From contig JAUCBJ010008627.1 in assembly GCA_032718475.1 (NCBI GenBank), positions 1 through 64,000 on the forward strand: a DNA stretch of 64,000 bases, in the 5' to 3' direction. The DNA comes from Nemertoderma westbladi. Lineage: Eukaryota > Animalia > Xenacoelomorpha. Below, in pieces: positions 3,048-63,527 of this stretch (the first letter of the stretch is position 1; each line of letters opens with the position of its first letter). The notes beneath the pieces are model-generated. The model had not been told where the DNA came from. It saw only the letters and a program-made list of their open reading frames with translations, and did not search any database. A program made the position numbers and the translations under genes.

Positions 3048-3684
3048 CTATAAGTAACCGGTCTCTCTAACCTTCAGTATATCAAGAAGATTGGGGTTTT
3101 ATGATTATTTATCGATATTCTCCAAATATAACAACATATCCATCAACTTCTAACAATTAATAACCGACAGTAAATAGCAGTAAAATAATGTGGTGAAAGG
3201 TATGTATAGTATGATATGATATGATAGGACTTGATAACAGTTATACGTTTCTATAATCAAAGCCGTTCTAATGTTTGGCTAAAGTCTGAAACACCGAATA
3301 ATTCCAAAGCCGATGTTCTGGGCTCAGGAAAAAAGGTAAACAAAGACCATAATGCATTGCGCGATCTTCCGTAGGCTTCTGTGCAAGATAAAATGAAAAT
3401 CGCTCTGATTGGTCGAGTGAGCCGAACAAAGAAAGCCAAAAAGCTCCACATCGACATATCAGCTGATAGATGTCGTCATCTGAACTACACTGTATTAAGA
3501 GTATTTTGGCGTATTGCGGCATAAAATGGCTTGTTATGTCCGCTAAAGTACACATACAGAAAAATGGCTTTTTATGTCCACTAAAACACCTACACAGTAA
3601 GAAAACGGCTTTTTATGTCCGCTAAAACACCTACAGAGTACTTTGCGGGGAAAATGACTAGCTAGATCCGCAAAAGCCTTTACA
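3048..3684 (-). repeat. 3' LTR of copy 1, distal ~540 bp missing
   Basis: Matches 20841-21477 with about 8 substitutions counted by eye. Starts TGTAAAGG on the minus strand and abuts the RTE fragment at 3047. Confidence 0.92.
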
Positions 3685-3692
3685 CCGCTCCC
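3685..3692 (-). other. Polypurine tract (GGGAGCGG) immediately before the 3' LTR
   Basis: Minus strand reads TTCTGGGAGCGG|TGTAAAGG; identical in copy 2 at 59196-59203. Confidence 0.7.
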
Positions 3693-3970: not shown

Positions 3971-6900
3971 CTAACGGCCTTTAGAGCGCGTTTTAGGACA
4001 GCAGCTCCTTTCTGGTCCCTGACGAGTCGTCTGAACGATAGCGGTAGGTGGACCGTGAGTGGTGAGAAACTTCCTCGGTTTAATGGTTCTTTCCAACTCG
4101 CGTTCTCGGGCTCGATATTCGTAGGGCCGTCGATGTACTTCCTGTAACTCTGGATGCGAGTTGATGAACAAATCGCCATACTCCGGGTCTTGACGGATGA
4201 AGTTGATCAAGTTGTATGAATTAATATCGTTAGGATTGATGTTCCTGAGATATTTACGAACAAATTTGGTGGAAATACACTCACCAACACGCTTCATTAG
4301 TTCGTAACTCGGTGTGCGTGATTTTTGTTCAACAGACGCGAATAGATAAGGATGGAACGCATAAACTCCTTCGTAGGCGCGTCCAGGGTAATAGCGATGG
4401 CGTGACTCACAATGTAAATCCGCATTCGCTTCCCAAGCTCGGATGTAGCGCAGGGTAATCATTTCATCTACGCTTTCCAGATCGCGGTTAAAAGGGCAAT
4501 CAAAACTGGCATGTCCTTTAAGTTGACAATGATGGCATTGAGTCATAAATTGGGGGCAGACTGCGAAAATGTGCAAGTTATTGAGTCTGCAATACGCACA
4601 ATAGATCTCCATCGCCGGTTGTTCGTGGAAATAGGAGCAGGGTACGTCTGAGTCCATGGGGGTGAGATGATCTCTCGATGCGCATAATTGGCAACGTTTT
4701 CGAGAAACATAGTTGGCGTGCCGATAATCGTATGCGGTGAGACATTGTGGACCTTGATACCATTCCAAGACGTAGTCGTTGTCGCTGCTCCGGGGCGCTG
4801 TAGGCTGAATCTCCTCGGATTCTAAGCATATTGGTTCGTCTTCCAATTGCATAGCTGAGGTAGGTGCGGCTGTCTCCTCAAGCGAACCCACTGTCTGAAC
4901 TTCCACGATAGAATAACCCGTGGGTATTCGAGGTCTTTGTATAACAGAGGAATGTAAGTTCTGTAGACAAACGTCCTTGAAAATGGCGAATCCAGCGCTG
5001 TCTAACTTCTCAGCAGCTGAGTCTCTTAGGCTGAGCTTAGTCAGAGCGCGGTCCTTGAACTGACTATCAACGTTACGGAACGGAGTCAGAAAGCGCCTGA
5101 AGCATTCGAAGCGGATGAATTTATTGTGTTCATCTAGCTTGGCGAGTTTGGTTCCAAGTATTAAGGGATGGGCGCGTATAGTACGACTGCACACATCGGC
5201 TAGCCAACCGGCAAGTGCGGCGTTTTCAAAGATCGTGTATATAGCTAAGGAGGGACGAAGTGGAACACTCATGAAGCTATACACGACACCAGGTGCGGTC
5301 AATGGTCCATCAAAGTATAATCGAGAATAATGATCTCCATATACTTGTTGATAGTTGATAGGGTTTCCGACCTTGAAATTCCATCCGTATTCTTGAAAGG
5401 CAAGATGTCCGATGGAAGTTCGTTGTACTTTAGTAATGCCGCTGGGTGTATTGGCATACATAGTGCGGAAGAAACCTCGGCCTTCTGCCCAGGGAGCAAT
5501 CAGCTGAGTATCTACGAAAGGATATGGGATGTTCTCCATGTTCCGAAAGTCGTTTTGGAGATCTCCATAAACAGCTGAGCCGATTTTAAGGATTCTTTCG
5601 TTAAACAACATCTCGAGCACGGGCTGGGGTAACATCGATCCATCGATACCCATGGCCGGTTTGCGCTCGGTGTCAGTGACGTAACGCTGCGCGAGTTCGA
5701 ATTGTCCATGTCGGAGTTTCTTTTGTATCTCGGTGAGGGTCTCAAAAGAATAATCAATCACATCGGAACACGCTCGAGTAAATACGTGGGTAGAACCAGC
5801 TAGTCCTCGTATATGTATCATGCGCGTAGTTCCCAGTTCTCCAACCGGAACGCTACCTTCGTTATCGTAAGTGACAACTCCATACATCTCTATAACGTTA
5901 AGAGTTTCGTTCCACTCTTTAGTGGCGTTTTCTAGGGTCATTCCCACTGGATGCCACAAGGTGGCGCATTCGCTAGCGTTAGGTAGATCTCTATACTTCA
6001 AATACTGTGTAGTATATGTTTCTACATCTCCATATCGTTGTATTCTCTCCTCCTCGAATAACACGTCGAGATTCCAGTGGACTAATCGAGTTTTGATAAA
6101 TCCATCGAGAGTATACGGAGGTATTATATCTTTCTCTATTCTGGAAACATTATAGGGTTTTCGGAATGAGTTTACTTTCACTAACTGATCCAGATGTTTC
6201 TGCAGTTGTTCGAGTTCGACAAGATCGAGAGGATTTATTAGTGGTAGAAACCTTAGACTATGTGTAGGATCTTCCGGTTTTACCATGTGATATTGAATTA
6301 GATTGACATAATAAGGGTGATCTTTGATCCCATAAAACGAGTTCGGTAAAGGTCTAGCGCGTATGTTGACCTCGTGTACCATACGACGGACAAGATCAGC
6401 TCTATTGTCCGGAGGTTCTACGAGTATACCATCAACACGAGCGGTCTCGATTGGCGGACGTTGCAACATAGGAGCGTCAGCGATAAGATCCCGAGACCTT
6501 AGGTTGATATCAACCGGTTGAAGTTGTGCCGTGGCGAAGAGTTTGTCTCCGAAATGGGGAACCATCGAAGGATGAATGATGGTTTTAGAATAGAGATCAG
6601 TCATAAGGATTTGAGCTTCTGGCTGGGCTAAAGCTGCTTCTTCTCTCTCATCCATTTCTATGTGTTTCTCCTCGAGCTGATTTTCCTCCGCTTGTCGTTG
6701 TAAATGCTCATCTAGGAACTCTTGTAGAGAATAGGTTCGTCCAAGTTCAATGTCTTCCTCGAGGTTCTGGATTTCTCGATCGAACTGGGGTAAAGCTAAT
6801 TCCTTCACTGCTTGGACTTGTTGCTGCAATTTGCGTTTCTCTAAACAATCGTAAGTTCCTTTTCCGATCTTCTGCCGAATAGCGTCTAACGCGTTTCGTA

Positions 6901-8017
6901 CAACGCTCTCCTCGACTTCGGTGACGGGTTGTATCGGGGTTAAACCGGGACGATTGTACGGGTTGAACGGCGATATTAGATGCCCGCGTCCCAATCCGGC
7001 TAGATAGGATGGGCGAATATCTAGCGAGCCCACTACCGGAATGCCACCGATTAATTGTTCGGGTAACACAAGATCTTTAAATAGTGAGTACAGTTCAGGG
7101 GGATCCGTTATACTATTAGGACCAAGCGTTTGAGGTCTCACTAAGGAATGAGGAGGTCTGACCGAGTATTCCGGAACTTTGATCATGGGTTTATTTAAGG
7201 ATTGTTTGAGTCGAGCGAGCGTAGGTGATACGTCGAACAGGTTTCGCTCGAAACTCCCATAAGTATATCGTGTAAAACTGTGTTTAGCGCAACGTCTCCG
7301 CGGATGTTTATGTCTTTCCGTTTGCTGATTGGGTCTAGGGCATTCGTCGCAGTAATACCAAAGACGCACGTCCTGCAGGGGAAACGCGGGTGATCGTTCT
7401 CCAGTTTTACAATATTCCTCCATCTGTTCGAAGCTATCTGGGACGACAGGTAGCGGTCGATCGGCGGTAAGATACATCATAGTGAAATAGAGTCGTTTGA
7501 GTTCTATCATAGGGTCATGATGTATACCTTGAGGATATCGAGTTTCTAGATTTTGTTGACTGGCAATATTGAGATATGTTTCTCTCAAGAATTCCAGATA
7601 ATTGTTGAAGTCACTGCGTTTATCCGGCTCTTCAACGTCTTCTCTTTCGAGTCGGTTTCGAATAGAATTCTCGTGTTCTATTCTCGGTTTATCGTTCCGA
7701 CTCCGCTGGGTATGATATTTAAATAAAACCATTTCCCTTTCGGTGTCAACATCGTCCGTATCGTGTAAATCGATAGGATGGCCAGTAGTTAAGAAGTCCA
7801 TATACGTACCGTTACGATGCGTATAGCGAGCGGTGAATTTTCTATAGTCCAATTCACGCGTAAGTTGCTCCTGGGACATCGGCGGTTCGATATAACGACC
7901 ATCGTCCTCCGTAGTAGTTGGACTAGCGTCGCCGCGTATCAAGCTATCAACAAACGCTTGTAAAGGTAGAGTATATCGCTCCCTAATACCAAGATCATCT
8001 TCTATCAACTCAGTCAT
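3971..8017 (-). CDS. Retrotransposon accessory protein: DEDD 3'-5' exonuclease-like domain (WRN/EXD2/Mut-7 type) plus three CCHC zinc knuckles; ancestral stop probably at 3763
   Basis: 1348-aa open frame. Exo motifs: VVTYDNEG (ExoI, D718/E720), LPQPVLEMLFNERILKIGSAVYGD (ExoII, D819), FVDTQ, SIGHLA and GPLTAPGVVYSFMS (ExoIII-like, Y913). Knuckles CX2CX4HX9C, CX2CX5HX4C and CX2CX4HX4C at aa ~1109-1174. No obvious signal peptide or transmembrane helix. Confidence 0.8.
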   Translation of the reverse strand: MTELIEDDLGIRERYTLPLQAFVDSLIRGDASPTTTEDDGRYIEPPMSQEQLTRELDYRKFTARYTHRNGTYMDFLTTGHPIDLHDTDDVDTEREMVLFKYHTQRSRNDKPRIEHENSIRNRLEREDVEEPDKRSDFNNYLEFLRETYLNIASQQNLETRYPQGIHHDPMIELKRLYFTMMYLTADRPLPVVPDSFEQMEEYCKTGERSPAFPLQDVRLWYYCDECPRPNQQTERHKHPRRRCAKHSFTRYTYGSFERNLFDVSPTLARLKQSLNKPMIKVPEYSVRPPHSLVRPQTLGPNSITDPPELYSLFKDLVLPEQLIGGIPVVGSLDIRPSYLAGLGRGHLISPFNPYNRPGLTPIQPVTEVEESVVRNALDAIRQKIGKGTYDCLEKRKLQQQVQAVKELALPQFDREIQNLEEDIELGRTYSLQEFLDEHLQRQAEENQLEEKHIEMDEREEAALAQPEAQILMTDLYSKTIIHPSMVPHFGDKLFATAQLQPVDINLRSRDLIADAPMLQRPPIETARVDGILVEPPDNRADLVRRMVHEVNIRARPLPNSFYGIKDHPYYVNLIQYHMVKPEDPTHSLRFLPLINPLDLVELEQLQKHLDQLVKVNSFRKPYNVSRIEKDIIPPYTLDGFIKTRLVHWNLDVLFEEERIQRYGDVETYTTQYLKYRDLPNASECATLWHPVGMTLENATKEWNETLNVIEMYGVVTYDNEGSVPVGELGTTRMIHIRGLAGSTHVFTRACSDVIDYSFETLTEIQKKLRHGQFELAQRYVTDTERKPAMGIDGSMLPQPVLEMLFNERILKIGSAVYGDLQNDFRNMENIPYPFVDTQLIAPWAEGRGFFRTMYANTPSGITKVQRTSIGHLAFQEYGWNFKVGNPINYQQVYGDHYSRLYFDGPLTAPGVVYSFMSVPLRPSLAIYTIFENAALAGWLADVCSRTIRAHPLILGTKLAKLDEHNKFIRFECFRRFLTPFRNVDSQFKDRALTKLSLRDSAAEKLDSAGFAIFKDVCLQNLHSSVIQRPRIPTGYSIVEVQTVGSLEETAAPTSAMQLEDEPICLESEEIQPTAPRSSDNDYVLEWYQGPQCLTAYDYRHANYVSRKRCQLCASRDHLTPMDSDVPCSYFHEQPAMEIYCAYCRLNNLHIFAVCPQFMTQCHHCQLKGHASFDCPFNRDLESVDEMITLRYIRAWEANADLHCESRHRYYPGRAYEGVYAFHPYLFASVEQKSRTPSYELMKRVGECISTKFVRKYLRNINPNDINSYNLINFIRQDPEYGDLFINSHPELQEVHRRPYEYRARERELERTIKPRKFLTTHGPPTAIVQTTRQGPERSCCPKTRSKGR

Positions 8018-9720
8018 AGCTACTATATGAGTTTATCAATATTATAATGAGTTTATAATTAGGCTAGCGGGCGTCGCTGCCTACCCCTCACGGCCCCCGG
8101 ACAGTGCAAGATCCTCAGCGCCGATGTACCGTCGTCGCTGTGTTTTTTGCCAACGTAGTAGCTACACAACGACAACGATAACCAGCGCGAGTCACTCCAC
8201 CGTCCATCCCAAGGGCTAAGATTTACTTCAGGTTCTTACTGCAGAGGTAGGGCTACTTTCACAATTGCGACTCGCTACTGTAAACACACTTTAGTAGTAA
8301 CATTCACCTATAAACGCACAAATTCCACACAACTGTCACGAATTGTACACATTAGGGCCATTTGTCCGTTAGTCAAGTGCCTTCCAGAAGGCCACGTTAT
8401 TATTATGTATCCTTGGATACTAGCAGTGTGCTATTTATTCCTTATGCTATTCAATGGGCAAGCTTTCTATTGTTCTTTTAACTCGCTTCTAATTCTAGCG
8501 TGGTTGTTGCTATGGTGACATTATGGAAAGCTAGCGGTAGAATTAGGGTAATTCCCATGCATACAGATCTGGGATGCTATTTAATAGTAATTCTTTAATT
8601 GTCAATATTCCTCTTTATACATGATTTTATGAATTTTATCGGCAATTGACTATATATTGGAGATTCTCGCACACTAATACACTTAATAGGGTGAATCTCC
8701 GCTCCCATGATTAATTAATTAATGGAATTTTGGGAATATTATAAATTGTATAAAATAACAATTTATCAAATTCATTAAAAGAGATGAATTTAAATTTATT
8801 CCCGTAAATTTTATTATTTATCCTTAAAACAGACATAATTTTATTCCAGAGCATGTCTGGGGACTAGGTTCCTTAATTCTAGGAAGTTTGTCCTTTTAAG
8901 AGTATCGGTAAGTGCTACGATATCTTAATAGACTAGAAATTTAAAGGATCTAAAATTTTACAGATTTTAATTCATAGATTTTCTAGAGTTAACTTGTAAG
9001 TGGTTACTCTATTGTATTTATTTGACAGATTTTATAAATATTAATAGTTAATATTTAAGATGGGCACCGGTTTATTCCAGAACAGGTCTGGGGACGTTAA
9101 CCATTGATTCTAGAATTTTGTCTTTCAAGTATATCGGTGGGTGCCGCGATATCTTAATCGACTAGAATTACAGATGGTCAAAGGGTTTAACAGATTTATT
9201 TTGCGTTTTACGCTACTGTTAAAGGGACATCACGCTACTATATGTATTATTTAATATACGGTATGAGAGCAATATTGCAAGAAGCAATGTCAGTGAGAAG
9301 AGGCAAGTCGTTTCCAAGGTCTACCCAGAGCTTGGTTTAGCCGAGACACGAGGATCTGAATTTTGCATTCCTAATACTCTACTTACCAATAATACTTGAA
9401 TATAGTAGGAGCTTTATTGTACTTTAATAAGTACGGACATCTCATCTTACTGTAGTCACGTATTTATAATATGATATGGACAGTAAGGAAAGAGAAAAAG
9501 AGTTATTTCTCACCGTCGCACTAAATATATATTATATAAGTAATTAAGTAATAAGACTAATATATATTGCACTAATCTACTAGATAATCGCTAAAATAAC
9601 ATTCTACTAAATAAAATTAAAGAAAACGATTATAATAAAAGTACATAATAGTACATACAGAAATATAAAAATGATAAAAATATATGAAATAATATAGTCA
9701 CACACCCACTCCAGACGCTG

Positions 9721-10803
9721 TCACGTTGGGGAGTCCCTGGATGTTGGTTGGATTAGGGAGGTGGTCGTGGGAAGAGTATCTTGCCTTCCATAGTTTCCGG
9801 AGAGTTCTCTGTCTCTTTCCAGTAAACATAAACGACCAACTGGGCGATTGAGCTGCTGCGTCTCGAAGACAATTCCCGGTTTCTTAAAGTTACGTCGCAT
9901 GACGACGAGTTCTACCGATCGCACCAAACCATCATCTGAGATATGAGTCTCGATGATACGACCTGTCTGCCGCAGCTTACGTGGAAGATCTGACTCCACA
10001 ATAAGGACCATGTCTCCTGCGCTGACGTTTTCATGCTGCGCAAACCACTTAGTTCGAAGTTGTAGCGTAGGCAGATAATGTTTTTCGAAATGGTCAGCGA
10101 AACGACGGGATAACAACTGCATAAGTTGCCAAGTTTGCCGGCAGTATTCGTCTCCGTCCATGATTTCTGATCGTGGGGGCATGGCTACAGGTTTCTTCAG
10201 TAGGAAGTGCGTGGGTGTTAGCGCTTCCAAGGAATCGGGACTCGATGAGACTGGCATAAGCGGTCTCTCGTTGAGATAGGCGGCGATTTCCTCCATTAAC
10301 GTCCACAAAAGTTCGTCGGTGAGATACGCGCGGCACGGCACTATAAAGTGAAATGCGGTCTTCACGCTCCTGATTAATCTCTCCCAACTTCCTCCCCACC
10401 AAGGGGCGTCGGCGGCGTTGAAGGTCCAGCTAGACGCTGTTACCCTTAGCTGATCGTCCACCTGTCTTTGGTTCCAATCTTTTACGTAAGCCTTGATTTC
10501 ATTGTTGGCACCAATGAAGTTCGTTCCCTTATCAGATCTCATCGTGTTACTAGTTCCAAAGCGAGCGATCTGTCGGCGTAAGCTCAATATGAAGCTATTG
10601 GTAGATAAATCGTTCACCATATCGAGATGGATAGCTCTACAAGTCATACAGACAAAGATGACACACCATCTCTTGACTATAGTCCTAGCACGATATACCT
10701 CAATAGGGCCAAATAAATCCACACCGGTATTAGTAAAGGGTGGTTCATAGAAGCTTACTCGTTCCCTAGGTAATTCTGCCTCTCGTTGTGGATTTCTCAA
10801 CAA
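9721..10803 (-). pseudogene. BEL/Pao integrase core and C-terminal domain; the HHCC zinc-finger region is missing
   Basis: The DDE triad is visible in TGVDLFGP, SDKGTNF and GSWERL. LTPTHFL and DGLVRSVEL...RPVGRLCLL are typical BEL C-terminal motifs. In frame with the upstream ORF across the stop at 10867. Confidence 0.92.
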
Positions 10804-10866
10804 CAGGAAATACTTATCGGAATCCTCATAGCATTGCAGGAGTCTCAGTATCTGCTTATTGGTTTC

Positions 10867-12510
10867 TTAATCCTCCTGGTAACTGATCTTCTCCTTCAGA
10901 AATCTGCCTGATATCTTGTATTTGGGAAGATCTTTAACAACATGTACCTGTACAGATGTCAGTGGAGCGGTATCACTAGTGGTCTTCGTCCTGGAGTAGT
11001 GATGATGAAAACATCGCTTTAAATATGTAATGGCCTTACAGAGCCGATTCCAGGAACTATAGTGATGTATCGCTCTCTGCAGGAGAGGTGAGAGTCCCTG
11101 CGAGACGTCTGGTGTTCCAGATTTCCAATCTCTCTCTCTGATTTCCACAACAGACTTATTTGTGGCTGGGGTTTTTGGATCCAAAGCGTCGTCTCCAGAA
11201 GTGTGTAGTACAGACAGATCTATCACGGGTTTAAATAACTTCGATTTACTCGCTCGGGTTTTAGGTTTGACTTTCTCCGCTCCCTTGGCTTGTCTAATCT
11301 CCGCCGTGGTAAGATGAGGAGGCCATTCATCCTCTTCTTTGCTTAGGAAGTCGGGTCCGCCTAACCAGTCTGGAGTATCTATCAGTTCTTGTGGAGTTGC
11401 TCCTCTGGAGGCGATGTCGGCTGGATTAATCGTTCCGGGGCAATGTCTCCATTGATCTATCTTCGTGCGACTATGTATAATGGCTACTCTGTTGGTAACG
11501 AAGACACTGAACTGACAGACTTCATTGGTTATATACTCCAACACGAGTAAAGCATCGGTCCAATAGACAGTTTTCTCCAGTGGATAGTCGATCTGTTCGG
11601 TTACATTCCGGCCGATGGCTGTAGCGTATAGAGCCGCTTTTAACTCCGCTCGAGGAACTTTCAACTTGTTGTTTATCAAGGCCTTAGAGGTAACCAAGGC
11701 GACCTTGATTCCATCCGGAGTTTCAACTCTCAGGTAGGCTACTATACCTATTCCCATATCGCTGGCGTCTCCAAACACATGGAGTTGATAGGAATACGTG
11801 GGGAGAACATGACCAAAATATGAACGGGAAATTATAAAGTTCTCGATGGATGGTAGAGAATCTTCCCATTTCATCCATTTCTTTAATAGTTCTCCTTTAA
11901 GTGGATCGTCCCATGAGTGATTTTCAAGCCACATTTGTTGTACTAAACTCCGAGCAATCAATATAACTGGGTTAATAAATCCCAATGGATCGAAATAAGT
12001 GCTCAGGATACTTAGACAAATCCGTTTAGTCCGAACTGGATTATCTCGCTGTTTTAGCTGGAAAAACAGGATATCTCCCTCCGTGTCCCATTTCAAACCA
12101 AGTGTCTTGGTTTCTGGAAGATCGTCCTTGATAAGGTCTAGGTCTTTAACTCCTCGGTCTTCTACCGGGATTGATTCCAGAAATTCACGGGAGTTGCTGG
12201 TGAATTTAGTTAATCGAAATCCACCTATTTTCAAGCACTCTACCGTTCCTTTGGCGACATCAATGGCTTCTTCCACCGATGGGAGGGACTTTAAATTGTC
12301 GTCCATGTATATATCCCGTTTGATGTTGTCGATAACCTCTTTGGAGAAGGCGTCCCGGTTGTCATCAGCAGTGGTACGCACTATTGAGCAGGCGTTTGAA
12401 GGGCTCGAGATGATCCCAAAAGCCTGGATGGTCATCCAGTACTCCACCGGTTTCTGGTTGAGGTCTCCTTCAGGCCACCACAGAAATCGTAGGCTGTCTC
12501 GATCCCTATC
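10867..12510 (-). pseudogene. BEL/Pao reverse transcriptase (C-terminal part) and RNase H
   Basis: RT motifs RDSLRFLWW, FGIISSP, IYMDD and KTLGLKW; RNase H motifs VFGDAS, PRAEL, YWTD and NPADIASRG. The N-terminal RT motifs are absent, replaced by foreign DNA. Confidence 0.93.
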
Positions 12511-13855
12511 CAGCCGCTTACGTCCTTCTGGGCTCCTCCCCGAGGCGCACCCACGAGGCGGACGCTTTTCCACCACCCTTGGGGCCAGTCCGACTCCGTT
12601 TTTATCAGACCGGGCCGGAGGGTAGCCCGATGCTTCCCGGATTCACTTTTCAATCCCCCGATCACACCGGCACAGCTCGTCGCATGTGTAGCCAGATGGT
12701 CGGCTACTGTCAACTTACTGTGGCCTGACTGTACATTGAGCCAACTCAGAGAGTCAACCGGCGGGTGGACCAGTCGATAGCGATCGAGCATCAAGGTCAC
12801 CCTTGAGCCAAACCGACGGTCTTGTCCCAAGTGGGCTTGCGCTACCCAACATGGAATATTGACACGTTTTCACCCGCCTCGCCGGCAGTATTGAGGGGAA
12901 GTCGGTTCCGCAAACAATACTGACTAGCTCGAAAGCTAGGAACAAGTAACCACTTACCAGTCATTGTACACGTGTACTCAACAGATGTTCACGAAATCAA
13001 GTACACAATGGTAAACACAAAATCGGACACATACCATGCACACACAGAGGACATAATCGGGAAAGACAAATCGGTGACAAAATCAGAGGGGACAAATTGT
13101 ATCGACTGATAAAAGAGTCGAGAGTACCTTATTTTGCCGTCAGGGCAAAATAACTTTGTGTGCACAAAGTATGCTGGGGCGCAGTAAAGATATGGTCCTA
13201 CTAATACCAGCGGCGTCTAGACCAACCGGCAAGGGTTCCCATACTCACTCGCAGTGGCCATACATACACTCACGTATACCACGTACCCACAGCAACAGAA
13301 AGCTCAAGCAAACTACCACTGATCGTCCATACACAAACCACAGATTCCAAAGTATCGTTCACTCGGACCACACTACAACACCACCCCCTCCTTGAAGCGG
13401 ATATTCCAGGTGCTACCTCCATTCCAATAGTAGTACCAACAGAATCATCAGAATCCTGCCCATTCCGATGCAACACCTCCATTCCAATAGTGCTACCCTG
13501 GGAAAAGACACGTTTCGGCGGCCGATCGGAGACAGCAAAGAGTCTGGTCAACTCATACATACCAAACATAGACCTACCACATAGACCACAGATCACACTA
13601 AGCCACCACCCCTACTGTGTACAGGACTGGCAGTACGGCAACAGGCCGACTAGACGGTACCACGGCACCATGTTGATTCATGGTTCGCAAGACACGAGGG
13701 CCTTCAGTATCTCCCTTGCACTTACGGGACGATTTAACGTGCCCCCAGACACTCACGAGTCCGCCGCCGCCTGTTGTCGACACCCCTATAGAGACCTCAC
13801 CTCTTTGGGTATCGACTTGTCCCGCTGGATGAATGAGGTGACATAGGTTCACTTG
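12511..13855. other. Foreign ~1.35-kb segment replacing the N-terminal part of RT
   Basis: BEL similarity stops after ...LLTENETWQ and resumes at DRDRDSLRFLWW. The segment has no pol motifs. Boundaries are approximate. Confidence 0.65.
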
Positions 13856-16800
13856 GTTTTGCCAAGTTTCATTTTCTGTAAGGAGGTCGATGGTATTCTC
13901 CTCGTCGAAGAGTTGGTGGATATCGTCATTATCTGAGGAGTATGGTGTTCCCTCAGGTGGGTCGTCTCCCTCACTGGTCTCATCTTCCCATTCACTCACC
14001 TGGTAGACTCGTTCTTTGGGTAGCCTTTCCATGAGAGTTCTACGGGAAGGTCCAGTAAAGTACCAACCTACTCTAGTTCTTCCCGCATAGGATTGCAGTG
14101 GTTGTGGTTGAGCAGGCCGTTTTTCCGATGTCTCAAGCGCCTCATGCGCATTTTGGCCGATGAGTATTTGCACTCCAGGGTAATCTGTGTTGAATCTAGG
14201 TATCTCATGCTGTTGGGTGAAGTCGTCCTCATCCCAGTTATAAGGTTCCACTTGGCTGGTAGCGAAGTTCTTTATCGCCACCATTTTTACTGACCTTATA
14301 CTGTGTTCTCCTAGTTCATCCTGGGGGGTGGACAACGCGCCTACATAATAGTCTGTAGTTACTGTAGATTTCCAAACCTGCATAATTCCTGACATGTTCA
14401 ACTTAGTTCGGAACTTGGGTTGTCCAGCAAAGATGTCTTCGGCTAGTTCTTTGTCGATGAATGTTCCTGTGCTGCCGGAGTCAAGGAGGGCGTTCACTAT
14501 ATAGCTCTTTTCTGACCCGTGGACTCTCAACTGCACTACGGGAAATTCTCGGATTCCTACGTTGGAAGTTGGTGCTTTCCAAGATGGTTGTCGGTCAGGA
14601 GTAGTTAGGGGGAGCTCACTATCAATTTCCTTCTCATACGTAAGTGCTCGATACACTGCGGTATTTATTAGGTAACAGGATTCGTTTTCGTTGGAGAATT
14701 CATCCGTATAGAATCCTTCCATCTCAGAACTTTGGTCAGTGTCGTTCACATCACTGAATTGGACATGTAGTTCGGACTCACTTACCTGACTCGGGTTGTT
14801 TCTTTCGAATTCGGTGTGCAGCAAGATATGATGTTTCGCGCCGCACTTAGCACACCTCGCGTCAGAGTAACAGGTTCACCGTTGGTGTCCTTGTCTGAGG
14901 CAATTATAACACAATCGCTTATCCCACATGACTTCGCGTCTATCCTTTAAGGATTTCTTTAGGAATTCATCACACACACTTAAACGGTGGGGCCCGTCGC
15001 ACAATGCACATTTTGGTTTGATGTTACTTACTTTACCTTGGGTAATGTTGTGCACACTCGTTCTTTCCTCGGGCTTTCTTCCACGAACTCTCTTAGGAGA
15101 CGTAGGAGGAGTTTTTGTTACCTGTTCTCTCCTGTCACTAATTCGAGACTTAAATTTACTTACGTCTTTAGTTGCTTTGTTGACATAGTAAGATCTTGCG
15201 GTGTCTTTCCCATTGTCCTCCTCTTGAGAGGCCTGGCTTTCACCGTCGTCTGTATAACACACTGGTGTTACCTTTCTCCTAGAAACGGTTTTCTCACTTA
15301 CCTTATTTTCCGGTGTCTTCTCTCTGGACTGCTTTAGGAGCTGTAATTTTACCTCTCCATCTAAGAATGACATGAGATCAGCCATGGTAGGGTCTCGTTG
15401 TTGTTGTTCCATCATATATAACACTTTCTTATCCCAGCGTGTACCAACTCCACCCTTTGGCAAAGTAGATGCTACGGCTCCAATAACCATAGCACTCTGA
15501 TATTCATGAGACTTACCTAGCCAATCTAATTGTCTACAGATCTCCTGAATCTCATCGGAAAACTCTATAATCCCGCTGCTAATGAACTTTCGGGGCGCTA
15601 CCAATTTTGCATACAAATACCTAGCTATGTTATTCCTATTACCATACCTGATGTTTAAGGTATTCCATACTTGGCTTAATCCATCTGGATGTCCAATAAA
15701 CTTTAACGCCATTAACTTGGGAGATCCTTCCAAGCACTCGATGAGGAATCTAAGTTTCTCTCCGTTAGATAGCACAGAGTTCTGTATGTTATCTTTGTAA
15801 TATTCATTAAAAGGTAACCATTTCATCTCATCTCCATTGAACTTGACGATCTCTCCCACATTTACCGCTTGACGGGCTTCGGTTCTAGCCATTTGATGCG
15901 TAAAACTTTCTTGGGCCATCGTATTATTTAATATCGAGTTATCGGTATATAAATTTCTCGGATTATTATCAGGTCTATATGGAATATCATTGTCAACAGG
16001 TTTATAATTACCCTTAATAGGGTTTACTATAGGAGTTTCTACTTCACTAGCAGTGTAGATGCGTGTAGGCTCCACACCTTGCGTATGAAATACTTCAGAC
16101 CTAACAGGTTGACACATTGTTACAGGGTGTGGTGGTATACCCTTTTGTATATTTACTAATTTATCGCGTTCTAACGCGATATTCTGCTGCACTTCTTGCA
16201 ACTCTAACCTACTTTCCCTTACTGTTCCCTTGAATTGTTGAACAGTCTCCTGCATCTGCCCGAGCAGGAGATTCATCCCCCGCCGCCCCTCATCCACCCA
16301 CTCGACCGCCGAAGCGGGAGCCGCCAACACAGTAGCGGGTAGACAAGGGACAACGGGCGACAAATCGTTGATATTTCGCTCGGAGTCCAGTACAGGAACT
16401 GTCTCAGGGGCTGTTCTGCTGGGCACAGGTAGTTTAGTGCTGTGCAAAGGGAATTTAGAGTTGGGTTCTGGAAGTACAGGGATCTCTATCACAGAGGGGG
16501 TAGCTTCGAGAACAGGCCTAATTATTTCAGGCTCATCTACTATAGTAGGGAGTCTTTTTACTCTAATAATTTGGTCTGTGGGTTCTGTACTACCTAAGTC
16601 CGTGCTAGCTAGTTGCCTTCTCACAGCTGGGGGCAAATCAGGCAATTTCTGACGGTGGGGCATTCTTCTACGCCTGCTAGGACGAGATCTATTTCCTCCG
16701 TCTTCAGGATCTGTTGTATCGCCTTCATCCGATGATGTAAAACCCTGTCGCTTAGGGGTGGATCGACTTATCATCTGCCACTGAGTAGCTGTTCTCTGTT

Positions 16801-18391
16801 TATCTATGTAGTCTTGCTTCTCTTGCAGATTTTCCAACTCTAGTTGGATGGTCTCTTCAGACGCTCTCCGTTCTGCTTCTGCCACTGCTATCTTTCTTTC
16901 CGCTTATGCCGCTTTTCTTTCCGCTTCTGCCGCTGCCACTGCCGCTTTTCTTTCCACTTCTGCCGCTGCCACTGCCGCTTTTCTTTCCACTTCTGCCGCT
17001 TTTCTTTCCGCTTCTGCCGCTTTTCTTTCCGCTTCTGCCGCTGCCTCTGCCACTTTTCTTTCCACTTCTGCCGCTTTTCTTTCCACTTCTGCCGCTTTTC
17101 TTTCCGCTTCTGCCGCTTTTCTTTCCGCTTCTGCCGCTGCCACTGCCGCTTTTCTTTCCACTTCTGCCGCTTTTCTTTCCGCTTCTGCCTCTGCCGCTGC
17201 CGCTGCTGCTGTCTTTCTGTCTTCTATACGTTTTTTCTTTACTTGTTCTTCTTGGACCCTAGCGATGCGGCTGCTTTCATCAAATTTAGCTTGGTTCGCA
17301 GCTAACATTTCCGCATCTAATGCGTCCAACACAAACTTGGCTCCTTCACTATTAGGGCGAAGTCCAGCCAGCCGTCTCCTCAACTCTTTGTCTCCTACAA
17401 ATCGTTGATAGTCCGACAGATAGATGTCAATAGCGTCCTTCTTCTGAGGTTTCTCTAATGTAACCTCGCTTTCCACCTGAGAAAAGGCAGCGTCTGTTGA
17501 TTCTCCATGGGTCGAGCGCTCATTTAGCTGAATTTTCCATTGGGTCGTTCCTTGAACCTTGAGACTCACCCGTTGGAACCAAGTCTTGACGGCAACTTGC
17601 AACGACGTGTCTTGGGTTCTCTTCGAAGCTTCCTCAAAGGCTGATAGTAGTAGTCTGATTCTTAGGATTCTTACTCGAACTTGATAAAGCAGCTCTCCCT
17701 GCTCTTGAGGTCCTTGATGTTGTTGAAACAGTTGTTCCTCTAATCGCTCCAAAGAGCTGAAGAATCCCTGTACATATCCCGCTGCCGACCTCTTCCACAC
17801 AGCTGGATCACTAGTGTCTTTTGTCACTCCCATCCTGTATAAGTCCTCCCAGGCAGCTTCCGATAAGTTAAACGGGAGTCCGGGTCCGGGAAAGTTCCAT
17901 TGCGTCTCGACAATAGACTTCAGTTCCTCCCTTGTGTATCCCGCATAACTGTCCTTGGTCGATCGCTTACTTCTCGCCCAATCGATTTGGTGTTCCTCCA
18001 CTGCAATCAATACCCTAGTGAGTACGGCTGCAGGAAGAATGAGAAGTGGATCCGAATAAACCGCATCTGCCATCCTTGCTCCGCGCTCGGGTGTCAACTC
18101 TACAGTATCTGAACTACTGGAGCTATCGGGCCGCTGAGAAATAAGTTCTCGGCTCGGGTGTTGCTGCTGTTTAACAGCTGCTTCTTGGTCCCGCTTGACT
18201 TGAGCCCAAGTGCCTATGATAGACCTACGGTGTTTGACTAGCCTAGGGTCTGATACTACTACTGGAGGGATGACCTTTCTTACAGTAGGAGGGGAGTTGA
18301 ACTTCGGTCTCAAATGTTCCGCACTCCTATCTGGATCACAGATGGTTGTATCTAGGAGACTGTCTGACAGGTTTTGCTTTGTGTCAGACAT
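13856..18391 (-). pseudogene. BEL/Pao gag and aspartic protease, one frame interrupted by two premature stops (16904 and 14876)
   Basis: The three listed ORFs share one frame. Gag motifs KFNGDEMKWLPF...EKLRFLIECLEG; zinc knuckles CALCDGPHRLSVC, CYNCLRQGHQR*TC and CAKCGAKHHILLH; protease ALLDSGSTGTFI. Confidence 0.92.
16865..17212 (-). repeat. Coding tandem repeat in gag (21/30-nt units encoding AEAERKA / AVAAAEVERKA)
   Basis: Repeated ttctgccgcttttctttccrc units. One unit has GAA>TAA, creating the stop at 16904. Confidence 0.9.
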
Positions 18392-18530
18392 GTTTGTTTA
18401 TACCATTGGATGCCTACTGCTAGAACTACAGTTAAAGCAAGTCTAGTAATTCAGTATCAACTATAAGCCTAGTAATTAATTACCGATATCGTTACTCAGT
18501 GTAACGTGATATATATACACAATATATTAG

Positions 18531-18783: not shown

Positions 18784-20302
18784 CAATTATTTTAGAATAA
18801 TTGAATTTCTGAATTTAATGTTACTTAGTTACTTTACTTTACCTTATTACCGTTATTTAAGCAGTAGTCCAACTGATATTAAGACCTAATTGATGTATGA
18901 CAGGCCTACTGTTTTATAAATCGGTTTGAGTTTATTTATAATATATATATATATACCCTTTAATGGGTTTTTGTCAATGTTTGAAATAAATGTTATTATT
19001 TCTGGTAAGGAGTCACTACACAGAAGCTGTACGCTCTCAGTGAAGTGCTACTTGTTGGACACTAAAACAAATAATTCTAATTTACTAAGTTACTTATTAC
19101 TACAAATTACGTACAATTAATGGGTGAGATTACAATCTCTAAATAAACACAAAAAATTACACGTACAAATTTGAGGGTTAATTTTACAGGGAATCTACAA
19201 ACCAGCCTAACAAGGAGTTAGAATATCTGGTTATTACAAACGGACAAGATACTACGGTATTTGAAAATAATAAAGCAGTAGTAAATATATTGCGTTGTCT
19301 AGATAAGAAAATACCACTGTCTGACGACTTATAGCCGTAGCGCTATAAGTACTACGTTATGTACCCGGAGTGTTCCTACCTAGAAGTTAATTACCGCAGC
19401 CTACCATAGCTAATGTGCCTATTAACCACTTTACAACACAAATATACTGCCTACACACTAATTACCTTTGGAAAGCACTGTACACTAAACCCTAAATTAG
19501 GTACAAGTACTTATACAACAAATAACCAGCAGTTAAAAAATACTTGTACAGCTAAAAGAACCACGGTATCTGCCGGAGTGACCAGAGCATAAAATCACCA
19601 GTCTTTACCTACGCCAAACAGCCCTGATGTAGTACCGGGGTTAATTTAACTATAACGGTATGTATAACAAGCACAATTACTGCAGGAATAAACTTGGGGT
19701 ATGTATGTTGCGAATAATCGCATAAACTCTGAATAATAAATATTACGCTACCCGTACAGACTACACAAACAAAATACAAACCAAATGCTGGCAGACTACT
19801 ATCAAGCCTAAATAAACTACAGTATATGCAGACTCCGAAATGGTTAGTTAGTATGCGTTCTAACCGAGTAGTACGAGTTATACTTTCGGGGGGATTCACC
19901 TTACAGCACTGGATGCCCCCACGTTCGTAACTAGTACTTTATCGGACATACACTCTACACACACTGCAATCTCTTCAGACCTGACAACAGCCAGACAATA
20001 ATCCAGCTTACAAATTACCTGTACAATCTGCGCAGGCTTACATGCCTTCTGCTCAATATTAACTTACAAATTAATAAAACTGACAGAAATAAGTAAAATC
20101 CCAATAAAAAACCAGGGCGGCCATCCCTGATTAAATATCAAGACCTACCGGTATATAATTATCAAAATCGAATAATACTGATGTACCTGTACTGCTGTAA
20201 GTACCGGTTCGGGTGGTTAGGTAGGTAGGCCTACTGGTTACCGGTCGACCGGTACTTTTGCCTTTATTGCCTACGTTGCAATAAAGAAACTATAACTGTT
20301 AT

Positions 20303-21477
20303 TGTTCGCGCTTTTAGACCTTTAGCAGTTTAACCTGCCAATTTTAGGTGTCTTCTAGGTTATAAATCAACTTTAGCCTATAACAAGTATTTGATACACA
20401 TAAAGCTACATTAGCCGAAGCCAGCCTATGCGCAACCATTCACCCACAGTTAAGGGAGACTGGATTCGGATGCTCTGACCTTATTGCGGTGTAGACTTGT
20501 ACTATTCGATTGATCGTTAATATATAATCTCTGACAAATATTATTCACTTTTGGGAAATATTAACAGTTCCTTTAGGACGTGGCGCTCTAAGTATGTAAA
20601 CAGAGTTATGACTTACACTAAACACAATGGTATGGCTAATGATTTTCGTATAAAGCGCATTCTTTAGGAAATGCTTTGTTATCTATCACATTCATGCACA
20701 CTACCGCACACTGCTGCACACTGATCTGCCGACCTTCACTAAATTTGATCATATATAAGGAGAACAGCAACTGACACATGTAGGGTCTATGAAATAGCAT
20801 TCAATTCACTCCAAAACCACTATAATGTAAGTCGCAATTGCTATATGTAACCGGTCTCTCTAACCTTCAGTATATCAAGAAGATTGGGGTTTTATGATTA
20901 TTTATCGATATTCTCCAAATATAACAACATATCCATCAACTTCTAACAATTAATAACCGACAGTAAATAGCAGTAAAATAATGCGGTGAAAGGTATGTAT
21001 AGTATGATATGATATGATAGGACTTGATAACAGTTATACGTTTCTATAATCAAAGCCGTTCTAATGTTTGGCTAAAGTCTGAAACACCGAATAATTCCAA
21101 AGCCGATATTCTGGGCTCAGGAAAAAAGGTAAACAAAGACCATAATGCATTGCGCGATCTTCCGTAGGCTTCTGTGCAAGATAAAATGAAAATCGCTCTG
21201 ATTGGTCGAGTGAGCCGAACAAAGAAAGCCAAAAAGCTCCACATCAACATATCAGCTGATAGATGTCGTCATCTGAACTACACTGTATTAAGAGTATTTT
21301 GGCATATTGCGGCATAAAATGGCTTGTTATGTCCGCTAAAGTACACATACAGAAAAATGGCTTTTTATGTCCACTAAAACACCTACACAGTAAGAAAACG
21401 GCTTTTTATGTCCGTTAAAACACCTAAAGAGTACTTTGCGGGGAAAATGACTAGTTATATCCGCAAAAGCCTTTACA
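20303..21477 (-). repeat. Full-length 5' LTR of copy 1 (1175 bp, TG...CA)
   Basis: Both ends are fixed by comparison with 58024-59195 and 3048-3684. Three ~40-bp tandem repeats lie near the U3 end (about 21316-21432). Confidence 0.93.
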
Positions 21478-22500: not shown

Positions 22501-22612
22501 AGCCCGGAAGGATCCAAGCCAACAATTTTACCGCCCACCGACTAATAATTAACCTCATACACATTATAATGTACAGTCTGCAATGGAATGTTATTACGTT
22601 TTAATCTCTTAC

Positions 22613-58023: not shown

Positions 58024-59195
58024 TGTTCGCGCTTTTAGACCTTTAGCAGTTTAACCTGCCAAATTTAGGTGTCTTCTAGGTTATAAATCGACTTTAGCCT
58101 ATAACAAGTATTTGATACACATAAAGCTACATTAGCCGAAGCCAGCCTATGCGCGATCATTCACCCACGGTTAAGGGAGACTGGATTCGGATGCTCTGAC
58201 CTTATTGCGGTGTAGACCTACTGTATTATTCGATTGATCGTTACTACAATATCTCTGACAAATATTATTCACTTTCGGGAAATATTAACAGTTCCTTTAG
58301 GACGTGGTGCTCTAAGTATGTAAACAGAGTTATGACTTACACTAAACACAACGGGATGGCTAATGATTTACGTATAAAGCGCATTCTTTAGGAAATGCTT
58401 TGTTATCTATCACACTCATGCACACTACCGCACACTGCTGCACACTGATCTGCCGACCTTCACTAATTTTAATCATATATAAGGAGAACAGCAACTGACA
58501 CATGTAGGGTCTATGAAATAGCATTCAATTCACTCCAAAACCACTATAATGTAAGTCGCAATTGCTATATGTAACCGGTCTCTCTAACCTTTAGTATATC
58601 AAGAAGATTGGGGTTTTATGATTATTTATCGATATTCTCCAAATATAGCAATATTCCATCAACTGATAACAATTAATAACCGACAGTAAATAGCAGTAAA
58701 ATAATGCGGTGAAAGATTGTATGGTATGATATGGGCTGATATGATAGGATAACAGTTATACGTTTCTATGATCAAAGCCGTTCTAATGTTTTGCTAAAGT
58801 CTGAAACACAGAATAATTCCACAGCCGATGTTCTGGGCTCAGGAAAAAAGGTAAACAAAGACCATAATGCATTGCACGATTTCGCGGAGGCTTCTGTGCA
58901 AATAAAATGAAAATCACTCTGATTGGTCGAGCCGAACAAAGAACAAAGAAAAGCTCTACGTGGACATATCAGCTGATAGATGTCGTCATCTGAACTACAC
59001 TGTATCAAGAGTATTTTGGCGTATTGCGGCATAAAATCGCTAGTTATGTCCGCTAAAGTACACATACAGAAAAAATGGCTTTTTATGTCCACTAAAACAC
59101 CTACACAGTAAGAAAACGGCTTTTTATGTCCGCTAAAACGCCTACAGAGTACTTTGCGGGGAAAATGACTAGCTAGATCCGCAAAAGCCTTTACA
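58024..59195 (-). repeat. Complete 3' LTR of copy 2 (1172 bp)
   Basis: Reads TGTTCGCG...CCTTTACA on the plus strand and is homologous to 20303-21477. Confidence 0.93.
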
Positions 59196-59273: not shown

Positions 59274-62200
59274 TTAGTCTTTCTTGCGAGGACGGCGTTT
59301 GCGCAGTTTTTTGAGGCTAGCAAGAGTCCTTTTCTCTTTGGGGCGAGCCACTTTACTAGGAGGGCTATAACTCCTGGGTGAAGGGTATAATACAATTGCA
59401 TCGGAAGGTTTAGGATTACGGTCGGTGTATCCGCCGGTCGAGGTACCTGATTAATCGATATCAACCTCAGTGGAGCGAGGTCTAATGGCCTTTAGAGCGC
59501 GTTTTAGGACAGCAGCTCCTACTGGTCCCTGACGAGTCGTCTGAACGATAGCGGTAGGTGGACCGTGAGTAGTGAGAAACTTCCTCGGTTTAATGGTTCT
59601 TTCCAACTGGCGTTCTCGGGCTCGATATTCGTATGGCCGTCGATGTACTTCCTGTAACTCTGGATGCGAGTTGATAAACAAATCGCCATACTCCGGGTCT
59701 TGACGGATGAAGTTGATCAAGTTGTATGAATTAATATCATTAGGATTGATGTTCCTGAGATATTTACGAACAAATTTGGTGGAAATACACTCACCAACAC
59801 TCTTCATTAGTTCGTAACTCGGTGTGCGTGATTTTTGTTCAACAGACGCGAATAGATAAGGATGGAACGCATAAACTCCTTCGTAGGCGCGTCCAGGGTA
59901 ATAGCGATGGCGTGACTCACAGTGTAAATCCGCATTCGATTCCCAAGCTCGGATGTAGCGCAGGGTAATCATTTCATCTACGCTTTCCAGATCGCGGTTA
60001 AAAGGGCAATCAAAACTGGCATGTCCTTTAAGTTGACAATGATGGCATTGAGTCATAAATTGGGGGCAGACGGCGAAAATGTGCAAGTTATTGAGTCTGC
60101 AATACGCACAATAGATCTCCATCGCCGGTTGTTCGTGGAAATAGGAGCAGGGTACGTCTGAGTCCATGGGGGTGAGATGATCTCTCGATGCGCATAATCG
60201 GCAACGTTTTCGAGAAACATAGTTGGCGTGTCGATAATCGTATGCAGTGAGACATTGTGGACCTTGATACCATTCTAAAACGTAGTCGTTGTCGCTGCTC
60301 CGAGGTGCTATAGGCTGAATCTCCTCGGATTCTAAGCATATTGGTTCGTCTTCCAATTGCATAGCTGAGGTAGGTGCGGCTGTCTCCTCAAGCGAACCCA
60401 CTGTCTGAACTTCCACGATAGAATAACCCGTGGGTATTCGAGGTCTTTGTATAACAGAGGAATGTAAGTTCTGTATACAAACGTCTTTGAAAATGGCGAA
60501 TCCAGCGCTGTCTAACTTCTCAGCTGCTGAGTCTCTTAGGCTGAGCTTAGTCAGAGCGCGGTCCTTGAACTGACTATCAACGTTACGGAACGGAGTCAGA
60601 AAGCGCCTGAAACATTCAAAGCGGATGAATTTATTGTGTTCATCTAGCTTGGCGAGTTTGGTTCCAAGTATTAAGGGATGGGCGCGTATAGTACGACTGC
60701 ACACATCGGCTAGCCAACCGGCAAGTGCGGTGTTTTCAAAGATCGTGTATATAGCTAAGGAGGGACGAAGTGGAACACTCATAAAGCTATACACGACGCC
60801 AGGTGCGGTCAATGGTCCGTCAAAGTATAATCGAGAATAATGATCTCCATACACTTGTTGATAGTTGATAGGATTTCCGACCTTGAAATTCCATCCGTAT
60901 TCTTGAAAGGCAAGATGTCCGATGGAAGTTCGTTGTACTTTAGTAATGCCGCTGGGTGTATTGGCATACATAGTGCGGAAGAAACCTCGGCCTTCTGCCC
61001 AGGGAGCAATCAGCTGAGTATCTACGAAAGGATATGGGATATTCTCCATGTTCCTAAAGTCGTTATGGAGATCTCCATAAACAGCTGAGCCGATTTTAAG
61101 GATTCTTTCGTTAAACAACATCTCGAGCACGGGCTGGGGTAACATTGATCCATCGATACCCATGGCCGGTTTGCGCTCGGTGTCAGTGACGTAACGCTGC
61201 GCGAGTTCGAATTGTCCATGTCGGAGTTTCTTTTGTATCTCGTTGAGGGTCTCAAAAGAATAATCAATCACATCGGAACACGCTCGAGTAAATACGTGGG
61301 TAGAACCAGCTAGTCCTCGTATATGTATCATGCGCGTAGTTCCCAGTTCTCCAACCGGAACGCTACCTTCGTTATCGGAAGTGACAACTCCATACATCTC
61401 GATAACGTTAAGAGTTTCGTTCCACTCCTTTGTGGCGTTTTCTAAAGTCATTCCCACTGGATGCCACAAGGTGGCGCATTCGATAGCATTAGGTAGATCT
61501 CTATACTTCAAATACTGTGTAGTATATGTTTCTACATCTCCATATCGTTGTATTCTTTCCTCCTCGAATAACATGTCGAGATTCCAGTGGACTAATCGAG
61601 TTTTGATAAATCCATCGAGATTATACGGAGGTATTGTATCTTTCTCTATTCTGGAAACATTATAGGGTTTTCGGAATGAGTTTACTTTCACTAACTGATC
61701 CAGATGTTTCTGCAGTTGTTCGAGTTCGACAAGATCGAGAGGATTTATTAGTGGTAGAAACCTTAGACTATGTGTAGGATCTTCCGGTTTTACCATGTGA
61801 TATTGAATTAGATTGACATAATAAGGGTGATCTTTGATCCCATAAAACGAGTTCGGTAAAGGTCTAGCGCGTATGTTGACCTCGTGTACCATACGACGGA
61901 CAAGATCAGCTCTATTGTCCGGAGGTTCTACGAGTATACCATCAACACGAGCGGTCTCGATTGGCGGACGTTGCAACATAGGAGCGTCAGCGATAAGATC
62001 CCGAGACCTTAGGTTGATATCAACCGGTTGAAGTTGTGCCGTGGCGAAGAGTTTGTCTCCGAAATGGGGAACCATCGAAGGATGAATGATGGTTTTAGAA
62101 TAGAGATCAGTCATAAGGATTTGAGCTTCTGGCTGGGCTAAAGCTGCTTCTTCTCTCTCATCCATTTCTATGTGTTTCTCCTCGAGCTGATTTTCCTCCG

Positions 62201-63527
62201 CTTGTCGTTGTAAATGCTCATCTAGGAACTCTTGTAGAGAATAGGTTCGTCCAAGTTCAATGTCTTCCTCGAGGTTCTGGATTTCTCGATCGAACTGGGG
62301 TAAAGCTAATTCCTTCACTGCTTGGACTTGTTGCTGCAATTTGCGTTTCTCTAGACAATCGTAAGTTCCTTTCCCGATCTTCTGCCGAATAGCGTCTAAC
62401 GCGTTTCGTACAAAACTCTCCTCGACTTCGGTGACGGGTTGCATCGGGGTTAAACCGGGACGATTGTACGGGTTGAATGGCGATATTAGATGCCCGCGTC
62501 CCAATCCGGCTAGGTAGGATGGGCGAATATCTAGCGAGCCCACTACCGGAGTGCCACCGATTAATTGTTCGGGTAACACAAGATCTTTAAATAGCGAGTA
62601 CAGTTCAGGGGGATCCGTTATATTATTAGGATCAAGCGTTTGAGATCTCACTAAGGAATGAGGAGGTCTGACCGAGTATTCCGGAACTCTGATCATGGGT
62701 TTCTTTAAGGATCATTTGAGTCGAGCGAGCGTAGGTGGTACGTCGAACAGGTTTCGCTCGAAACTTCCATAAGTATATCGTGTAAAACTGTGTTTAGCGC
62801 AACGTCTCCGTGGATGTTTATGTCTTTCCGTTTGCTGATTGGGTCTAGGGCATTCATCGCAGTAATACCAAAGACGCACGTCCTGCAGGGGAAACGCGGG
62901 TGATCGTTCTCCAGTTTTACAATATTCCTCCATCTGTTCGAAGCTATCTGGGACGACAGGTAGCGGTCGATCGGCGGTAAGATACATCATAGTGAAATAG
63001 AGCCGTTTGAGTTCTATCATAGGGTCATGATGTATACCTTGAGGATATCGAGTTTCTAGATTTTGTTGACTGGCAATATTGAGATATGTTTCTCTCAAAA
63101 ATTCCAGATAATCATTGAAGTCGCTGCGTTTATCCGGCTCTTCAACATCTTCTCTTTCGAGTCGGTTCCGAATATAATTCTCGTGTTCTATTCTCGGTTT
63201 ATCGTTCCGACTCCGCTGGGTATGATATTTAAATAAAACCATTTCCCTTTCGGTGTCTACATCGTCCGTATCGTGTAAATCGATAGGATGGCTGGTAGTT
63301 AAGAAGTCCATATACGTACCATTACGATGCGTATAGCGAGCGGTGAATTTTCTATAGTCCAATTCACGCGTAAGTTGCTCCTGGGACATTGGCGGTTCGA
63401 TATAACGACCATCGTCCTCCGTAGTAGTTGGACTAGCGTCGCCGCGTATCAAGCTATCAACAAACGCTTGTAAAGGTAGAGTATATCGCTCCCTGATACC
63501 AAGATCATCTTCTATCAACTCAGTCAT
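59274..63527 (-). pseudogene. Accessory exonuclease-like/zinc-knuckle ORF of copy 2, with premature stops at 62712 and 59451
   Basis: Near-identical to the copy-1 protein. Two CAA codons of copy 1 read TGA (62712) and TAA (59451) here. Confidence 0.88.

Follow-up and report, generated by a model that had tools for sequence, protein, structure and literature searches.

A primer-binding site complementary to its own LTR in a BEL/Pao-type retrotransposon of Nemertoderma westbladi, most likely a self-priming site

What primes reverse transcription in an LTR retrotransposon whose primer-binding site (PBS) matches its own LTR rather than a tRNA? The question is raised by an element lying in a 64-kb stretch of DNA from Nemertoderma westbladi (contig JAUCBJ010008627.1, positions 1 to 64,000), hereafter termed the window. 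Judged by its protein domains, this is a BEL/Pao-type LTR retrotransposon on the minus strand, with a span of about 19 kb (21477 to 3048 alone covers 18.4 kb, and the 3′ LTR there is incomplete). LTRs were defined by self-BLAST of the window together with inspection of the ends, and the features used below are collected in Table 1. Compared with the 5′ LTR, the 3′ LTR of copy 1 shows 9 differences and that of the second copy 73 differing alignment columns; the second copy runs beyond the window, which does not include its 5′ end. Pfam domains along gag-pro-pol follow the order DUF1759, aspartyl protease, RT/Peptidase_A17 and integrase-side DUF5641 (E-values 3e-11, 0.004, 4e-36 and 2e-17), which is the Metaviridae order; the copy-1 reading frame is interrupted by in-frame stops at 16904, 14876, 13598 and 10867 and by a frame change between the 13598 and 12642 pieces. 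Direct LTRs with TG...CA ends and a polypurine tract (PPT) ahead of the 3′ LTR agree with the structural definition of BEL/Pao. The gag-pol homologues are BEL/Pao polyproteins of 31-43% identity, and among the matches listed PF05380 is present in all 120 and the named ones come mostly from marine animals (corals, echinoderms, lancelet, brachiopod and fish). No relatives of the element were found in IMG/VR.

Table 1. Features of the element and its second copy, in window coordinates
Feature	Coordinates	Strand	Description
5′ LTR	20303..21477	-	1175 bp, TGTA...AACA; self-BLAST and end inspection
PBS position	20285..20302	-	ATAACAGTTATAGTTTCT, directly after the 5′ LTR; complementary to the LTR site
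Putative self-primer	21027..21045	-	LTR nt 433-451; predicted primer 3′ end at 21027
TATA-like TATATAT (20757) and Inr-like TCAGT (20724)	20720..20757	-	Downstream of the putative primer; possible rival start
gag-pro-pol region, BEL/Pao type	9721..18397	-	Pfam domains; broken in copy 1
ORF3, accessory	3971..8032	-	1353 codons stop to stop; first ATG at 8017
Polypurine tract, short	3685..3692	-	GGGAGCGG; precedes the 3′ LTR
3′ LTR, copy 1	3048..3684	-	Truncated after 637 bp by unrelated DNA; self-BLAST
3′ LTR, second copy	58024..59195	-	Self-BLAST; site at 58749-58767
ORF3 of second copy	59451..63542	-	One in-frame stop at 62712

Several features of the locus are recorded here in their own right. 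The non-coding stretches of the element are unusually long, with a 1.9 kb leader (20302-18397) and a 1.7 kb spacer before ORF3 (9721-8032). Unlike most relatives, its 5′ LTR (20303-21477) holds no AATAAA or ATTAAA, and a polyadenylation site is not evident. Just upstream of this LTR and on the same strand lies a host-type Major Facilitator Superfamily ORF (22609-23496, 295 codons without a stop), and a separate RT ORF at 43594-45408 (RVT_1, E 5e-30) probably belongs to a non-LTR element. Repeats of roughly 1.4 kb (91-97% identity) make up an array at 29800-54700; short-period repeats lie between them, one being a GC-rich tandem array with a 10-nt unit at about 35850-37800. The segments 2531-3045 and 26542-27056 are two copies of a 515-bp repeat (92% identity); the first starts almost precisely at the truncation point of the copy-1 3′ LTR, and the repeat is likely another inserted element.

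A first-pass annotation of the letters alone had reported that the PBS position lacks TGG, that it pairs with the LTR over 12 bp and, after a 1-nt bulge, another 6 bp, and that the LTR site is conserved in three LTRs, and all of this was borne out. TGG is absent from the first 8 nt after the 5′ LTR end, and the duplex between 20302-20285 and 21045-21027 comprises 12 bp, a bulged G (21039) and 6 bp, is flush with the LTR end (offset 0) and has an energy of -18.2 kcal/mol. The published in-silico criterion for a self-primer requires a stretch of at least 10 bp, beginning 0-5 nt past the LTR, that can pair with that same LTR (PMC6317226, in the part of the paper available); the window element has 12 + 6 bp at offset 0. 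A 12-nt complement occurred in 5 of 5000 dinucleotide-shuffled LTRs, and the gapped score of the real duplex was matched in none of 2000 shuffles. When interior positions served as a fake PBS, none of about 16,500 reached 12 nt (best 11, twice), and the gapped score was equalled at none of 3308. A chance origin of the duplex is excluded. The palindromic core ATAAC-N-GTTAT occurs exactly four times in the 64 kb, namely in the three LTRs (3234, 21027, 58749) and the PBS. The putative primer site of the copy-1 3′ LTR is at 3234-3252, and between the LTRs designated B and C the site is identical while the next 50 nt hold 10 differences.

Two other kinds of primer were sought in the window and rejected. 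The best spliced match in the LTR, 11 nt with a GTTATC donor, is shorter than the contiguous one. Some nematode Cer elements reportedly encode their own tRNA-like primer; none was detected by ARAGORN in the window or by Rfam over 2500-22000, where Rfam gave two miRNA-family matches only, both far below their thresholds.

The element family is highly repeated in the host, as seen in public DNA contigs, and contigs of three DNA runs from two samples (X1 and X2 being one sample, X3 the other) were compared over 21012-21082. Depth rises about 70- to 360-fold from 21021-23 (508 in X1, 1,377 in X2 and 141 in X3) to 21027-29 (64,004, 101,286 and 50,945, respectively). The depths are sums over contigs, and scarcity of the window haplotype immediately beyond the site may be enough to account for the rise. 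Many different loose contig ends fall at 21024-21026. Since this jump and the loose ends coincide with the predicted primer end, the family keeps the site and varies directly beyond it; host copies thus diverge right after the point where the primer is predicted to stop. All six listed indels lie at 21054-21067, none of them in the site or at the bulge, and one divergent contig matches 21026-21059 only, as an island. A PBS variant in X3 (one loose end, 3 contigs) had no LTR change matched to it. A further run, X4, which we guess to be RNA, has little or no coverage at the site. As a separate observation, public-contig coverage of the LTR is much deeper over its 3′ half than over its 5′ half.

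The window holds a single 5′ LTR/PBS junction; both remaining LTRs are 3′ LTRs and give no test of the PBS. Relatives were collected by way of an alignment of 40 proteins, leading to 80 metagenome loci in 62 clusters, and both contiguous and GT-AG-spliced complements between PBS and LTR were scored. Their proteins, on which the family-level evidence rests, are about 36-42% identical to those of the window element. The core set consists of 10 clusters in which the 5′ LTR end was fixed by comparing two LTR copies (hand-placed in L032). In all 10, TGG is absent and the PBS pairs with the element's own LTR over 10-15 nt, whereas swapped PBS/LTR pairs reach at least 10 nt in 0 of 90; the covariation across families that the first-pass annotation had named as a check is therefore present. 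Pairing runs across a GT-AG splice joint in seven clusters (L004, L006, L032, L052, L061, L069, L072) and is contiguous in three (L035, L055, L064). Another 13 loci, whose LTR ends were chosen from ACA/ATA candidates, in most of them as the top-scoring one and hence partly circularly (by eye in L067 and L077), include 11 that reach 10-14 nt, so that two of the 23 relatives with complete-looking LTRs stay below 10 nt (L001 with 8, L008 with 7). A wider set of 23, which includes the window element and omits L001 from the swapped-pair count, gives at least 10 nt in 22 of 23 matched pairs versus 4 of 506 swapped ones, none of which reaches 11. All 23 PBS sequences are different, none has TGG within 0-5 nt, and all positive cases begin to pair at 0-4 nt from the LTR end. 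Matched changes are mirrored in each PBS, as in CGTC|GACGAAT (L020), CGAT|GACGAAT (L013) and CGTC|GTCAAAT (L077). Finally, 21 loci with mostly incomplete LTRs were scanned but left uncounted, the rest being duplicates, too short or lacking a 5′ end; here 11 nt was found in L031 and L060 and 10 nt in L023, L048 and L051, while 16 gave at most 9 nt or no candidate, and L042 gave 11 nt after its end was re-placed.

In the spliced form, the LTRs of relatives carry a GT-AG intron of 71-201 nt, and the exon-exon joint is an exact 10-15 nt complement of the PBS (L004 at 682-1077, L006 at 7360-8014, L052, L061, L069, L072, L032 and ten more). The contiguous forms L035, L050, L055 and L064 sit at separate places on an RT-RH tree, as repeated loss of the LTR intron would give. 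The window element is on a long branch of this tree, without a supported sister among the scored relatives; the tree holds only unnamed or “uncharacterized” relatives. Two offset classes can be seen among the relatives, one pairing from base 1 (PBS starting GT; AT in the window) and one from base 3-5 (PBS starting T), and they may reflect different processing of the cDNA end. L067/L068 contain head-to-tail tandem BEL/Pao copies with a 6138-bp period and single shared LTRs, an arrangement that assembly of reads from a one-LTR circle might have produced.

Given that related families keep the PBS-LTR pairing with different sequences, and none of them with a TGG site, self-priming is likely, and we regard the feature as genuine and, most likely, as a site of self-priming. 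That said, the variants of this idea differ in strength. Self-priming taken over all its variants, from the LTR RNA near the transcript start in the manner of Tf1 or from the 3′ end of the RNA, appears likely to us, and the Tf1-like variant, argued from sequence and from analogy, is the one we favour, with reasonable though not strong confidence. Transcription would begin at 21045 or upstream of it, and pairing of the leader with 20302-20285 would enclose a loop of up to 724 nt. Cleavage immediately 3′ of 21027, with the element's RNase H as the probable agent by analogy with Tf1, would leave a 3′-OH; RT would extend it from 20303 to about 21026 (across U5 and R) and then transfer to the corresponding stretch of the 3′ LTR. 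In most relatives, splicing of the LTR intron would generate the primer, the window element being the uninterrupted form. Because the partner in relatives is often an internal splice joint, a start at 21045, close to the one predicted in the first-pass annotation (21045-21038), is neither supported nor required. In folding calculations the 12-bp core pairs with a probability of 0.86-1.0 if the transcript begins at 21060 or 21045; the value drops to about 0.5-0.65 when it begins at 21100-21200 and to 0.04 when it begins with the first base of the LTR. The folding energy of the whole leader is ordinary (z -0.54), and only this one duplex stands out; its loop is 724 nt compared with 46-360 nt in relatives. 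This route is weakest at the start site: the sole TATA-like and Inr-like pair (20757/20724) is downstream of the predicted primer. The self-priming first suggested for this locus gains the differing pairs of the relatives and the divergence of host copies at the primer end, and loses its predicted start and its tentative link to ORF3.

ORF3 itself is under purifying selection; its two copies differ by 51 synonymous and 26 nonsynonymous codon changes and one stop. By weak but consistent signs, its middle part (residues 690-1020) resembles a DEDDy 3′-5′ exonuclease, with CCHC knuckles after it. DEDDy enzymes have the RNase D fold and carry Exo I (D-x-E), Exo II (D) and Exo III (Y-x-x-x-D) motifs; by eye, YDNEG, KIGS...GDL, DTQ and YTIFE (E for D) may be their counterparts in ORF3. 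An Atlas feature match scored 0.92 (163 of 256 features) to a cluster in which 50% of members bear PF01612, and the homologue P0121 (E 5e-5) has the same layout, exonuclease-like followed by a double CCHC, with PF01612 at E 0.2 only. No Pfam match was obtained for ORF3's own domain, further protein searches with it returned no additional homologues, and a single-sequence structure prediction gave a pLDDT of 30.5. Its first 680 residues are unexplained, and about 70 nt upstream of its ATG there is a GGGGGCCG motif that resembles the PPT of relatives. Priming had been tentatively linked at the outset to this nuclease-like ORF, and the comparison lends that link no support: in 21 of 21 signature-bearing relatives checked, only 105-581 nt separate the pol stop from the 3′ LTR, and tblastn found no ORF3 homologue among the 80 relative loci. 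The PBS-LTR signature is therefore independent of ORF3, which would probably be dispensable for priming.

The strongest competitor, which we regard as unlikely, keeps self-priming and moves it to the other end of the RNA. If transcription started downstream, for example near 20724, the site would lie in U3 and the primer would come from the RNA 3′ end, that is, from the 3′ LTR copy of the site on the same or a partner RNA, exposed by a cut or by 3′-5′ trimming that stops at the duplex, possibly by ORF3. The only TATA-like and Inr-like motifs noted in the LTR do lie downstream of the site, none being found upstream of it, but TATA-like matches are at chance level here (2 seen versus 1.3 expected by composition), and where such motifs are clear, in L064 and L069, they sit 124-142 nt upstream of the partner. 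The unusually long loop, a selected ORF with a 3′-5′ exonuclease-like domain and a palindromic core that could also let two RNAs pair would all suit this route; in relatives, however, the partner needs splicing of the LTR intron, and ORF3 is missing. A broader reading joins a wide marine BEL/Pao branch without tRNA priming, mostly with splice-built primers, to an ORF3 exonuclease that would trim the 3′ end in place of a Tf1-type RNase H cut. As a whole it seems to us quite improbable; its group-wide self-priming part, taken alone, is probable, and the exonuclease trimming step is a long shot.

Could selection have kept the pairing for a different function? It might serve RNA dimerisation, packaging or translational control, with priming left to some host RNA that has escaped recognition, for instance a small RNA or a piece of a tRNA. 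Dimerisation signals are often palindromic, as is the core here, although the sites of the relatives are not. Half-tRNA priming does exist in copia groups (PMC6317226, in the part available), but 23 different PBS sequences would need 23 host RNAs, each mirrored in the element's own LTR, and in every positive case the pairing begins just where a primer must end; we therefore think this explanation improbable. It is very improbable that the LTR and PBS sites are two instances of a palindromic transcription-factor site or arose through an inverted duplication by accident. The core is AT-rich as well as palindromic, and TAACTG at 21036 presumably fits a Myb consensus, but the core is confined to LTRs and PBS, the match extends 7 bp past the palindrome and ends flush with the LTR, and relatives pair with unrelated, non-palindromic letters, so that the swapped-pair control largely refutes this idea.

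If self-priming is true here, it extends to a third superfamily of LTR elements and spans a broad range of marine animals, and the host-tRNA priming given in the ICTV profile does not hold for these BEL/Pao elements. For most of the relatives examined, no primer would be available until the RNA is spliced; reverse transcription would then be tied to host RNA processing, and unspliced RNA could be barred from copying. The proposal predicts a primer 3′ end at 21027 in the window element and at the named splice joints in relatives. LTR finders that require a tRNA PBS would presumably miss or mis-annotate such elements.

The mechanism as such is known already, and what would be new, within the literature searched, is its occurrence in BEL/Pao. 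According to the parts of the papers available, self-priming is described for Tf1/sushi and Tcn1 elements and proposed for TAR copia elements (PMC6317226, PMC4600332, PMC7175516, PMC3601003, PMC6934838). In Tf1 and Tf2 of Schizosaccharomyces pombe, Tj1 of S. japonicus, and the Tf1/sushi and Tcn1 chromoviruses, the PBS complements the element's own 5′ LTR (PMC4600332, available part), and the Tf1 RNA anneals to the PBS through its first 11 bases, with RNase H cleaving between bases 11 and 12 (PMC7175516, available part). The window element resembles Tf1/sushi in a PBS that complements its own LTR rather than a tRNA, but those elements are Ty3/gypsy whereas this one has BEL/Pao domains and homologues, so it is no member of that group. 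Its likeness to Tf1 lies in the pairing, and the transcript 5′ end and RNase H cut are placed here by analogy; its duplex is 18 bp with a bulge and closes a loop of up to 724 nt, and most of its relatives pair through a splice junction, which the Tf1 texts available do not describe. Relative to Tf1, the trait may still be called convergent, as first suggested, although it is widespread among BEL/Pao relatives and not peculiar to this element. The TAR lineage of Ty1/copia (Houba, Osr-1) offers a case where self-priming was likewise predicted from sequence alone, under the same criterion (PMC6317226, available part), but these are plant copia elements of a different superfamily.

ORF3 has its own parallel in Juno and Vesta of bdelloid rotifers, which bear an RNase D-like DEDDy ORF of unknown role in the third-ORF position, sometimes with a Cys-His-Cys motif (PMC5408684, available part). 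Those are described there as rotifer-specific retrovirus-like lineages, and the window ORF3 differs in its length of 1353 codons and in a weaker exonuclease call; the available part of that paper mentions neither a PBS nor a link of the DEDDy ORF to priming. The words PBS, tRNA and priming do not occur in the main text of the Sinbad paper (PMC554778) or of a BEL/Pao survey (PMC3118150), and no description of BEL/Pao self-priming was found in the literature searched, which was thin in subscription papers and without supplements. The ICTV profile, which calls replication of Belpaoviridae poorly understood, assigns them genomes of 4.2-10 kb and a PBS of 18 nt that pairs with the 3′ end of host tRNA-Arg or tRNA-Gly (PMC8742986). 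The window element agrees with it in LTRs of up to 1.2 kb, the PR-RT-RH-IN order, a PPT before the 3′ LTR and an extra ORF in the env position (PMC8742986), and departs from it in its size of about 19 kb and in the exonuclease-like rather than env-like nature of the extra ORF. Because its PBS is not of the tRNA type, TGG being absent at 0-5 nt past the LTR, we file the element as BEL/Pao-type by its proteins and not as a typical member of the family that the profile describes.
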